The notes beneath the pieces are model-generated. The model had not been told where the DNA came from and did no database searches. It saw only the letters and a list, made by a program, of their open reading frames with translations. Shown piece after piece: positions 41,978 through 54,612 of a stretch of 64,000 bases of DNA. This DNA is from Eledone cirrhosa (taxonomy: Eukaryota). The number at the start of each line of letters is the position of its first letter. The stretch's first letter is position 1. Made by a program: the position numbers and the translations under genes. The stretch covers positions 90,892,001 to 90,956,000 of the forward strand of contig OZ024741.1 in NCBI GenBank assembly GCA_964016885.1, written 5' to 3'.

Positions 41978-42034
41978 ATGGTTCAATTAACCGGTAAATT
42001 CCTGCTCTGCGCCCTTCTTGCAGCAACAATCTCT
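41978..42034 (+). CDS. Exon 1: signal peptide [19 protein letters not shown]
   Basis: AGCATGG start context, hydrophobic core, donor GTGAGT, phase 0. Confidence 0.75.
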
Positions 42035-45000
42035 GTGAGTATTTTATTTTAAAGTCTAGGATTATTTACGATCTAAATACCTCCTCATATATATATATGT
42101 ACATATATATATATATATATATGAGGAGGTATTTAGATATATGTACATGTATATATATATATATATATATATATATATATATATATATATATATATATAT
42201 ATATATATATATATATATATATATATATATATATATATACATATATGTATATATATATATATACATATATGTATATATATATATATACATATATGTATAT
42301 ATATATATATATATATATATATATATATATATATATATATATATATATATATATATATATATATATACACATATACATATATATATATATATATATATAT
42401 ATATATATACACACATATATATATACACACATACATACATACATACATACATACATACATACATACATACATACATACATACATACATAACCGAGGTAAC
42501 TTGTGTATACAGTTGTCAGTTTGATCGATTGTTTACCCACTTTCCAGAAATTTTGAGGCATTCTTATAATGTAAGAAAACATTGCAACAGACGTAGTAGA
42601 GCGTTTCATTAAAACATGTAATTTCATTCGTCTATATTCCCAGCTAAAATCCTAACGAAGATCACTTTATTTTATATACTTCCATGATGTATAATATACG
42701 TGCCAATAAAATATTGTTGATATTTCAATTGACTGCAGCACCTTTGCTTCCAAATTCTTGTCTAAAGAAATAACAGTTATTTCAATTATTTCAATTATTC
42801 AATTTTCAATAACAATTTTTACATATTCTTTTCAATTATACCAATAATGAATTTAAAATTTTAAACTTGTCTAATAATGTGTTGTTGTTTTTTCTCTTCT
42901 TTTACAGCCATTGATAGCAGATTATCTTATTGATGTGAAATTGATCAAGTATGAAAATTACAACCGTTTAATGTCTAATGGGAAATACTGCTCAAGTTTC
43001 AAAAATTCACAATGTCAAACGAGTATCAAAATCTGTGCTAAACGGGATGACAGCTCATCTATGTGTCAATATGGCATGAGAGACACAGGAGTCATCGGTA
43101 AGTACATAGTATTTTATTAAAACAAATTGGCTGAATAAATATTATCGTGAATCTTGTGATACAGCAAGAATTGTGTTGTATGTTTATGTGATGTAATCAT
43201 TTCGCGGTAAAAGCGCATGGTTTAATGGTTAGAGTGCTGGTCTAACACCCATAGAGTCGTGAACTCGAGGCGCGGACCGCTACTCTAGTCTACTCTGCTG
43301 ACAAAAATGAGGTGTACCTGTAATTCAAGGAGCCAGTCTCGTCACATTTATCACGCTGAATCTCACTGAAAACTACTTTAAAGATGCACGTGTCTGTGGA
43401 ATATTTAGCCACCTGCCCGTTAATTTCACTGTCAAGCTGTCCGACTGATTAATTCAACTGGAAAACTCGTCGTCAGATCCGCCGTCATCAATTCTACATG
43501 TATAGTTGTTATGTGCCAGACCTCATGCTTTATTTATAGCTCTCTATAAAACTAATTCGTTTTTTTTTTTTGGGGGGGGGGGGGTTCTTCTTACTTTCTC
43601 TCTTTATCTAATTATAGAACTCTTTGAACTCTTATCTGAGGCCTACCCTTCTCAATGTAACCACAATTTCTCTGCTACTGATACTCTACACCTTATTTAC
43701 TTTAATATATATAATTTCTTCATTTAGAAAACCCATTGTTCAGACAGCGGCCTAACTTTTCTAAATATTCTCTATATTGTGTTCTTTACTTTCTGAGTTC
43801 AAATAAATCTGAGGTTAACTTTGCCTTTCATACTTGCGGGATCGATAAAATAAAGTAGTAATCAAATCAAGGGGTCGATGTAATCGACTTTCCTCTTCCA
43901 CAAAAGTCCTGCTGACCTTATGCCTAAATTATATTTTAATTTATTGTATTGTTCTTATCTAAGTAATTGTTCCGTCTCAGAGAAACTAATTTCCTAATAT
44001 AATTTTTATTTCATTTTCTAAATTAATTTTAGGTGATAATGTAATAGATTTAAATAAAACTCACATTGGGAGGCTAGCGAATCCAACCTATTTCCGAGTT
44101 CGAGAACCATTTCAGGTAAGGTTTTGATATTGAAGGAAAATACTTCTTATATTGAACTTCCAAAAATTCTATGTCACTAAAGTAGTTTAATTTCAGTACA
44201 TATACATGTGTGCGTATATATATATATATATATATATATATATATATATACATACACACACGTTAGAGAGATAGATTTTAGCATTGTACTATGTTCCATG
44301 ACACACGGCCTATATGGTTTTCATTTTGTTTCTTGAATCGGCGAATTCCTGTCAAATGGCACCACAGGGATGTGAGCAAATGTAGTTCTCTCTCTCTTTC
44401 TTTCTCTATCTCTCTCTCACTCTCTCTCTCTCTCTCTATCTATTACCAATCTATCTATCTCTATCTCTCTCTCTCTCTCTCTCTCTCTCTCTCTCTCTCT
44501 CTCTCTCTCGTTCTCCGACCTGCACTCTTTCAACGATGGTTCGTTGATTGCGACAACAAAATACAACACTGGCAATCAAGTAACGCCGATATTAAAAGAT
44601 ATAAATATATCCTCTTTTTTGCTCATCGGAGGCCGAGAACGAACGTATTTCTACTGCTCTCTTATTATGTTTTGTTTTTTATACACACACACACACATAC
44701 ACACACACACACACATATATATATATATATATATATATATATATATATATATATATATATATATATATATATATATATATATATATATATATATATATAT
44801 ATATATATATATATATATGACTTATATTTTTCAGAAATTCATTGTTTCTTTCACTGCAAAACACAACAATGAATTGATTGACAAATATGAATACAAGAGC
44901 AAATATAATTTACCCCAGGGAAGCATTGACGTAGCTACGTATGTCCTGAAAACAACTCAAGGTCAATATAACACGGGTAGTGTAATTACATATCAAATAC

Positions 45001-54000: not shown

Positions 54001-54612
54001 AACTAGCCACTCATACTGATATTAAGGTATTGTTCTCAAAATAAACAATATCAAAATCTCATAGATTCGATATTATGTGAGATATTATATGAGATAAAGC
54101 CTTTTCCACGAAAATACAATAGTATATATAGAATAGTGTAAATGCTAGAGGGTTAAGGTATTTACTAAAACTCCTCATTTCATTACTAAGATATTAAACT
54201 GATATACGGTTCTTATATAAAATTATCTTAGAACATTTTAATTTAAATAGCACCCTTTAAAATGGTGGAACCAGAAACATTTTTGCCAGCTTAGTATCAA
54301 AAAGGTTATTAAATATATAACTGCAATCATCAATAAATTCTTGCTTTAACAAGAAATATATATATTATTAAAATTTTAAACCTATTACCTAAACAGTTAT
54401 CATATAAATCAATTTTCTTTTCTTTTTTTCCAGAAAACTTCAAATGTCCTCACCCAACAGGCCTTTTCCCTGATCCCCGAAGCTGCACACATTTTTATCA
54501 ATGTGACTGGAGTATTTCCTACAGAAAGGATTGTCCTGGAAACTTGCACTTCAACAAGATACTAAAAGTGTGTGATTGGCCACTACATGCCAACTGCTAC
54601 ATCAGACCTTAA
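41978..54612 (+). CDS. Secreted Delta/Serrate-like protein with C-terminal chitin-binding domain, 773 aa; join(41978..42034,42908..43097,44033..44115,44835..45002,45475..45622,46004..46114,46813..46932,47623..47742,48436..48555,49249..49368,50822..51727,54434..54612)
   Basis: All 11 introns are GT-AG with matching phases. The 2322-nt joined frame is open from ATG to TAA. Domain order is signal-MNNL-DSL-13xEGF-CBM14. Confidence 0.85.
42908..43097 (+). CDS. Exon 2: MNNL/C2 domain N-terminal part
   Basis: TTTACAG acceptor and GTAAGT donor; [30 protein letters not shown] follows the MNNL Cys pattern. Confidence 0.85.
43205..43480 (+). mobile_element. SINE family 2 copy (intronic); family 1 copy at 43745-43930
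   Basis: tRNA-like head GCGCATGGTTTAATGGTTAGAGTG..GAACTCGAG, with the body shared with 24050-24355. Confidence 0.7.
44033..44115 (+). CDS. Exon 3: MNNL/C2 middle part
   Basis: TTTTAG acceptor and GTAAGG donor; [20 protein letters not shown]; phase 1 to 0. Confidence 0.8.
44835..45002 (+). CDS. Exon 4: MNNL/C2 C-terminal part
   Basis: TTTTCAG acceptor and GTAAGT donor; [19 protein letters not shown]. Confidence 0.8.
45475..45622 (+). CDS. Exon 5: DSL domain
   Basis: [46 protein letters not shown] has the six-Cys DSL spacing. Confidence 0.9.
46004..46114 (+). CDS. Exon 6: EGF repeat 1
   Basis: [24 protein letters not shown]; phase 1-1. Confidence 0.9.
46813..46932 (+). CDS. Exon 7: calcium-binding EGF
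   Basis: [38 protein letters not shown]; 120 nt, phase 1-1. Confidence 0.9.
47623..47742 (+). CDS. Exon 8: calcium-binding EGF (tandem copy)
   Basis: [39 protein letters not shown]. Confidence 0.85.
48436..48555 (+). CDS. Exon 9: calcium-binding EGF (tandem copy)
   Basis: Near-identical to exon 8, with intact splice sites. Confidence 0.85.
49249..49368 (+). CDS. Exon 10: calcium-binding EGF (tandem copy)
   Basis: Identical by eye to exon 9, with intact splice sites. Confidence 0.85.
49985..50056 (+). pseudogene. Truncated EGF pseudo-exon
   Basis: [24 protein letters not shown] followed by loss of the last two Cys and a stop; no usable donor seen. Confidence 0.65.
50822..51727 (+). CDS. 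Exon 11: eight EGF repeats
   Basis: 906-nt open exon with 8 six-Cys EGF units, TCTAG acceptor and GTAAGC donor. Confidence 0.95.
54434..54612 (+). CDS. Exon 12: CBM14/peritrophin-A chitin-binding domain and stop
   Basis: [51 protein letters not shown]; strong polypyrimidine acceptor; phase 1 matches exon 11. Confidence 0.9.

Follow-up and report, generated by a model that had tools for sequence, protein, structure and literature searches.

A tandem DSL gene family with a terminal CBM14 domain in the octopus Eledone cirrhosa

Known DSL proteins and the architecture of gene B

The canonical ligands of Notch (DLL1, DLL4, Jagged1/2, Drosophila Delta and Serrate) consist of a signal peptide, a C2 domain (MNNL in Pfam), a DSL domain with six cysteines and an array of EGF repeats. 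Canonical Delta/Serrate ligands need endocytic pulling to activate Notch. The same parts are encoded by four canonical loci of the octopus Eledone cirrhosa (L024-L027) and by gene B, which is found at positions 41978-54612 on the forward strand of a stretch of 64,000 nucleotides (assembly GCA_964016885.1, contig OZ024741.1, positions 90,892,001 to 90,956,000), here called the window. Unlike the canonical ligands, gene B has no transmembrane segment or cytoplasmic tail and ends in a CBM14 domain, the Notch-contact face of its DSL domain is replaced, and its first two EGF repeats are ordinary. It also has an intron directly before the DSL domain that is absent in L024-L027.

Delta proteins have been defined by at least nine EGF repeats (PMC5356439); gene B has 13 and its neighbour, paralog C, has 4. 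The Jagged/Serrate type combines a VWC domain with 16 or more EGF repeats, whereas gene B has 13 and no VWC domain in the exons scanned. A duplicate of Delta reported in molluscs, Delta2, resembles gene B in being without a transmembrane domain, but it is described as shortened by early termination and not as a CBM14 fusion (PMC8166818). The word "chitin" is absent from the main text of that article, and the two Octopus bimaculoides accessions in the ligand table of its supplement are not members of the DSL-CBM14 family. Gene B fits the "DSL-like" class of Gazave et al. 2017, which groups DSL proteins that carry a further conserved domain and was a residual class left out of their analysis (PMC5356439). 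No chitin-binding DSL-like member and no octopus sequence was found in the supplements of that article.

CBM14 with its conserved Pro, Leu and Trp is shared with matrix and defence proteins such as peritrophins, the Pif/BMSP shell proteins, tachycitin and the CBM of chitotriosidase, but in gene B, unlike these, there is only one CBM14, placed at the end of an EGF rod whose other end bears the C2 and DSL domains. Full-text searches of the literature, with the listed papers judged by title and opening of the abstract, turned up no account of a DSL-CBM14 protein, although Fig. S1 of PMC8166818 (138 DSL genes by domain) could include one, and accession stems of the family returned no paper. An earlier note on this DNA, made from the sequence alone, knew of no such architecture, and the literature gave no description that would make it an already characterised family.

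Gene model, transcript and tandem copies

Gene B was rebuilt from the window sequence as 12 exons on the + strand with compatible phases, GT-AG introns throughout and an open frame of 773 amino acids. Exon 1 (41978-42034) holds the start codon and most of a signal peptide that is predicted from hydrophobicity and homolog alignment, and its residues are 18/19 identical to those of each paralog. The C2 domain is divided between three exons. Exon 2 (42908-43097) encodes the first half including the beta1-beta2 apex loop, as placed by Pfam MNNL and by alignment of a homolog with DLL1; exon 3 (44033-44115) is assigned to C2 by the homologous exon in a transcript of paralog A and by the C2 fold of a homolog model; and exon 4 (44835-45002) encodes the last strands, its homologous exon being spliced in the paralog A transcript. 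The DSL domain with all six cysteines is encoded by exon 5 (45475-45622) according to Pfam and a gapless alignment with Jagged1. Exon 6 (46004-46114) holds EGF1, an ordinary EGF and not of the Delta/Jagged type, and exon 7 (46813-46932) holds EGF2, which is of the calcium-binding type (EGF_CA 27.8 bits, cut-off 27). EGF3-5 are found in exons 8-10 (47623-47742, 48436-48555 and 49249-49368), three near-identical tandem units of about 813 bp, and EGF6-13 in exon 11 (50822-51727), resulting in 13 EGF motifs in the product. The last exon (54434-54612) encodes CBM14 and the stop codon and is followed by two candidate AATAAA polyadenylation signals (54847-54871), recognised by sequence only.

Pfam was run on the single exons of gene B against curated cut-offs. 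MNNL was found in exon 2 (25.4 bits, cut-off 22.5), DSL in exon 5 (49.4 bits, cut-off 24.2) and CBM_14 in the last exon (53.7 bits, cut-off 22.1), with EGF above its cut-off in the scanned exons from 6 to 11. Exons 3 and 4 alone gave no significant Pfam family, and the scanned exons showed no VWC, catalytic, VWA or LamG domain. PF21700 and PF21795, which represent the atypical EGF1-2 of the Delta/Jagged type, were both listed for the Jagged controls P0092 and P0100, whereas exons 6 and 7 had neither of them at E<=0.1. Of the canonical Delta/Jagged features, gene B has the C2 domain (MNNL), the DSL domain and the EGF array, and it lacks the transmembrane segment and the intracellular domain. 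The rebuilt model and the exon-wise Pfam matches thus confirm the order of predicted signal peptide, MNNL/C2, DSL, 13 EGF, CBM14 and stop that the earlier note had read from 12 exons, with a probable micro-exon added.

The highest 19-residue hydropathy past residue 30 of the gene B product is 0.88, compared with 2.94-3.02 in the Jagged controls (3/3). The stretch from exon 11 to the next paralog has 42 candidate acceptors, none of which opens a credible alternative exon encoding a transmembrane segment, so the missing membrane anchor of the original model stands. Three of the 42 acceptors had a hydrophobic stretch and were rejected as transmembrane exons, one being a microsatellite read-through and two being intergenic without a family match.

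That the CBM14 exon belongs to the same gene is seen in the transcript of paralog A. The evidence is one contig of one study, from run X4, which is of unrecorded kind. This contig of 2538 nt has 0 mismatches to paralog A over 8 exons, through C2 and DSL to the large EGF exon, with GT-AG joints. In an X4 contig of equal length and equal depth, taken as the same record, the large EGF exon runs into the CBM14 exon, and the CBM14 sequence has 28 differences from the window that are exactly the 28 of paralog A. Because the contig is spliced through C2, DSL and EGF into CBM14, the fusion is transcribed as one molecule in paralog A. The opposite outcome, with exon 11 spliced to a transmembrane exon and CBM14 being part of another gene, was not found.

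The 44 letters at the joint of the X4 contig equal a micro-exon of paralog A plus 26 bases. A 13th exon of 18 nt (52643-52660), absent from the earlier 12-exon model and probably encoding a linker, is likely in gene B because it is the sole candidate of this length in the last intron under the pattern used, because paralogs A and C also have one each, and because 18 and 26 give the 44 letters in the transcript of A.

Three paralogs stand in tandem on this contig (C2 in the coordinates below), each ending in CBM14, with gene B in the middle. Paralog A lies upstream (C2:90850228-90887524) and paralog C is the next one after B (C2:90961025-90979708). The open, all-GT-AG models of A, B and C have 771, 779 and 433 residues with 13, 13 and 4 EGF repeats respectively. 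Paralog C (C2:90976615-90979533) is without the 906-nt exon of eight EGF repeats while the frame is kept, and its rod is therefore short. In introns 4-6, 21 of 1551 sites separate B from C (about 98.6% identity). That they are two haplotypes of one gene is disfavoured without proof, since the missing 906-nt exon and large intron insertions in C favour paralogs. The ratio of non-synonymous to synonymous divergence (dN/dS) for C2, DSL and CBM14 is 0.29-0.49 when A is compared with B or C.

The rod shows signs of rearrangement within gene B. Four copies of an intron-plus-EGF-exon unit of about 813 bp are found at 46458-49865 and are 94-99.9% alike over the aligned stretches; judged by this similarity they are a recent internal expansion of the EGF rod. 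Two of the units differ at 1 of 820 bases, and the EGF count of gene B, which rests on these near-identical units, could reflect assembly over-expansion. A decayed remnant of an EGF exon (49982-50056) was left out of the model; its counterpart in paralog A carries a stop codon and is skipped in the transcript. Nine of the 13 EGF repeats (46004-51727) have a Ser/Thr before the third cysteine, which we take to be the consensus for O-fucosylation.

Head, tail and proposed role

The tail of gene B aligns with chitinase CBMs, tachycitin and the CBM of chitotriosidase. It has kept six cysteines together with the Pro, Leu and Trp that match P451, L454 and W465 of CHIT1, the residues with the highest impact in CHIT1 mutagenesis (PMC5459812), and a protein with these residues would be expected to bind chitin. 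The nearest other CBM14 exons in the genome (L021 at C8:1049670 and L022 at C1:136115089) are 36-43% identical and are possible relatives of a donor exon.

At the other end, alignment and modelling indicate that the head of the family is homologous to the Notch-ligand head. The member in O. sinensis aligns to DLL1 across C2 and DSL, and its predicted structure has a C2-DSL fold (pLDDT, the predicted local distance difference test, 67.6). The model matches Jagged, DLL4 and Drosophila Delta best and then other C2 domains, with Drosophila Delta as the best match (Z 14.1, root-mean-square deviation 7.4 over 206 residues), a likeness that is partly built in because the alignment used for the model held canonical ligands.

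The residues of the Jagged1 DSL domain in contact with Notch are F199, R201, R203, D205 and F207 (PMC5669421), among which the substitution R203K removes Notch binding and F207A reduces activation (PMC5538765). The gapless alignment of gene B with Jagged1 gives F199>R, R201>E, R203>P, D205 kept and F207>L, so that one of the five contacts is kept in gene B, and none is kept in paralog A. R201, R203 and F207 are replaced in all three genomic paralogs and in 24/24 database relatives with a DSL domain, which all (24/24) have P at R203 and Q at F207. By comparison, R203, D205 and F207 are kept in 4/4 of the canonical ligand loci of the same genome (L024-L027, the four best DSL loci). This comparison covers the DSL site of the two Notch sites. 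The replaced contacts and the absence of the Delta/Jagged-type EGF1-2 weaken the reading of gene B as a Notch ligand. With no membrane anchor, no Notch face and no atypical EGF repeats, gene B is, from its sequence, outside the canonical ligand family. The earlier note had proposed either a matrix-tethered Notch ligand or decoy, or a co-opted structural or immune protein; the first of these has lost ground for the same reasons and the second fits better.

We give a probability of about 0.5 to the reading that the product is a secreted linker that joins chitin at one end to a cell surface at the other, the likely contact on the cell being membrane lipid or a partner other than Notch. The product would be secreted, CBM14 would grip chitin, the EGF rod would be a spacer of varying length, and the C2-DSL head would sit on the membrane with the C2 apex loops binding lipid as in Notch ligands, or would bind a partner other than Notch. 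Such a linker might attach or organise a chitinous cuticle or hard part on the epithelium secreting it, and the sucker cuticle, the bristles of hatchlings, the beak, the radula or the gut lining are candidate sites. A chitinous sucker cuticle and Kolliker organs are, to our knowledge, peculiar to octopods. The suckers of octopus carry a chitinous cuticle and the hatchlings have Kolliker organs (PMC5607860), which have been likened to chitinous chaetae (PMC11149249), and two genes with DSL and EGF are specific to the radula in a snail (PMC5995198). The family may have originated from a Delta-like duplicate whose membrane anchor was replaced by a terminal phase-1 CBM14 exon. In one lineage of animals, exon shuffling would then have turned a core scaffold of developmental signalling into a protein that binds matrix. 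Gene B would be a concrete candidate for the attachment or patterning of chitinous structures by octopus epithelia, and a natural variant for asking what the C2-DSL head of a ligand does without Notch.

Besides the built-in likeness of the model, several points weigh against the linker. Copy B has no match among the X4 pieces listed, which gives no evidence on its expression either way. The radula genes of the snail list no CBM14 and may be unrelated to the octopod family. Ligand C2 domains bind liposomes via variable apex loops, but human DLL3 keeps its C2 domain and does not bind liposomes (PMC5538765), and lipid binding by the apex loops of the octopod family would be carried over from vertebrate ligands by analogy. 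Finally, the divergence in the apex loop between B and C, the two youngest copies, is sharp and not obviously explained by a purely structural linker.

This divergence is found in an island at 42948-43017 (+ strand) in the comparison of B with paralog C. At residues 33-56, which alignment with DLL1 identifies as the beta1-beta2 loop, in the apex through which ligand C2 domains putatively bind lipid, 20/72 nucleotides and 12/24 amino acids differ while the flanking DNA is near-identical. It would suit a secreted recognition protein, an opsonin or agglutinin, which is possible at odds well short of even: CBM14 would bind chitin from foreign sources (fungi, parasites or crustacean prey), and a variable C2-DSL head would bind microbial lipids or host cells. 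Variation of the tandem family in copy number and in rod length, and the resemblance of CBM14 to the defence protein tachycitin, are in line with such a role. Furthermore, all six changes between B and C in the DSL domain alter amino acids, including three on what was the Notch face, and non-synonymous sites in residues 57-215 differ more often than the introns (16/380 versus 21/1551, Fisher p=0.0008). However, dN and dS between B and C do not differ significantly in any of 7 regions (p 0.16-0.53), so positive selection judged by dN>dS alone was rejected as not significant, and because synonymous divergence is also raised in the loop island, a gene-conversion tract could explain the loop.

It is doubtful that gene B encodes a chitin-tethered Notch ligand or decoy, which on a cuticle would resist the pull on Notch or soak up the receptor and so pattern the chitin-secreting cells. 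In favour of this reading, gene B retains the C2-DSL-EGF scaffold with its cysteines, Notch patterns the chitin-secreting chaetoblasts of Platynereis (PMC5356439), hes1 is radula-specific in the snail together with the two DSL genes (PMC5995198), and among human ligands the DSL-EGF11 site varies more than the other Notch site (PMC5538765). Against this stand the contact residues, of which one of five remains in B and none in A, with P and Q at R203 and F207 in all 24 relatives, while the canonical loci of the same genome have kept R203, D205 and F207. Moreover, the Delta/Jagged-type EGF1-2 is absent and the head diversifies fast between copies. An unlikely variant is a secreted signal anchored to chitin, in which the C2-DSL head, now rebuilt and diversifying, would contact Notch through a new surface or recognise a new receptor. 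If this is true, the matrix would tell the epithelium where to build suckers, bristles or beak without a signal-sending cell, and if the head still signals to Notch, the ligand would be anchored by a polysaccharide instead of a cell. It is very improbable that, within a real family, copy B is a recent duplicate that has fallen silent or is decaying, or is partly an assembly artefact, as the near-identity of two EGF units and of introns 4-6 in B and C might suggest, because the frame of B is open with intact splice sites and all cysteines, the CBM14 exon has a dN/dS of 0.24 against C (on about four changes only), and B-specific sequence (969-nt contig, 0-1 mismatches) is held in three genomic-type runs that may be from the source sample.

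Relatives, annotation and other loci

Relatives with this head were found only in O. bimaculoides, O. sinensis and O. vulgaris, and in Argonauta hians as a fragment of 93 residues. CBM14 is terminal in 18 of the 25 database relatives, many of them isoforms, from the three Octopus species, and the other seven entries look shortened, partial or mis-framed. The rod reaches about 21 EGF repeats in O. sinensis. An initial protein search with exon 2 as query gave no match. HMMER with the same 63 amino acids against 1.84 billion representatives gave 6 matches, all octopod, with a query too short to return canonical Delta, so that members in squid, cuttlefish or other molluscs may exist. The ESM Atlas gave generic Delta/DSL clusters only, all under 0.9. 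No family member was found among the entries listed in the supplement of a skin-mucus proteome of O. vulgaris, and the main text of a preprint on the argonaut eggcase has no mention of Delta, Notch or DSL.

The family is hidden in public annotation. Its entries in RefSeq and UniProt (XP_014781344-6, XP_052826417-9, XP_036356080-2, XP_036362564-8 and CAI9727906-7) are named fibropellin-1, notch homolog 1-like, jagged-like or Delta-like protein. When four of the proteins were scanned with Pfam at full length, CBM14 was missed in all three that bear it, whereas the C-terminal tails of the family scanned alone gave CBM14 at 52-57 bits. The misleading names are probably due to this loss of CBM14 in full-length scans. 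Public gene models of the cluster in O. sinensis and O. vulgaris are also fused, split or in the wrong frame (P0126, P0129, P0137, P0138 and P0003).

Further divergent DSL and MNNL exons, without the canonical Notch-contact motif or with split C2 exons, are found elsewhere in the genome: L030 (C4:260098054), L032 (C4:259895030), L033 (C2:355406053), L034 (C2:355593061), L038 (C4:259944899), L039 (C4:34804172), L040 (C4:259906686) and L042 (C1156:40883). Judged by these exons, several more DSL-like genes of non-canonical type seem to be present in the octopus.

A canonical ligand locus is present twice at C6:93803354-93907911 (L024, L025, L036 and L037), about 70-80 kb apart and with an identical DSL protein, and the doubling may be a recent duplication or an assembly duplication. 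Between paralog A and gene B (18481-31200 of the window) there are several copies of retroelements on both strands, broken by stop codons, with long open frames and endonuclease and reverse-transcriptase-like pieces, which we take to be of the long interspersed nuclear element (LINE) type.

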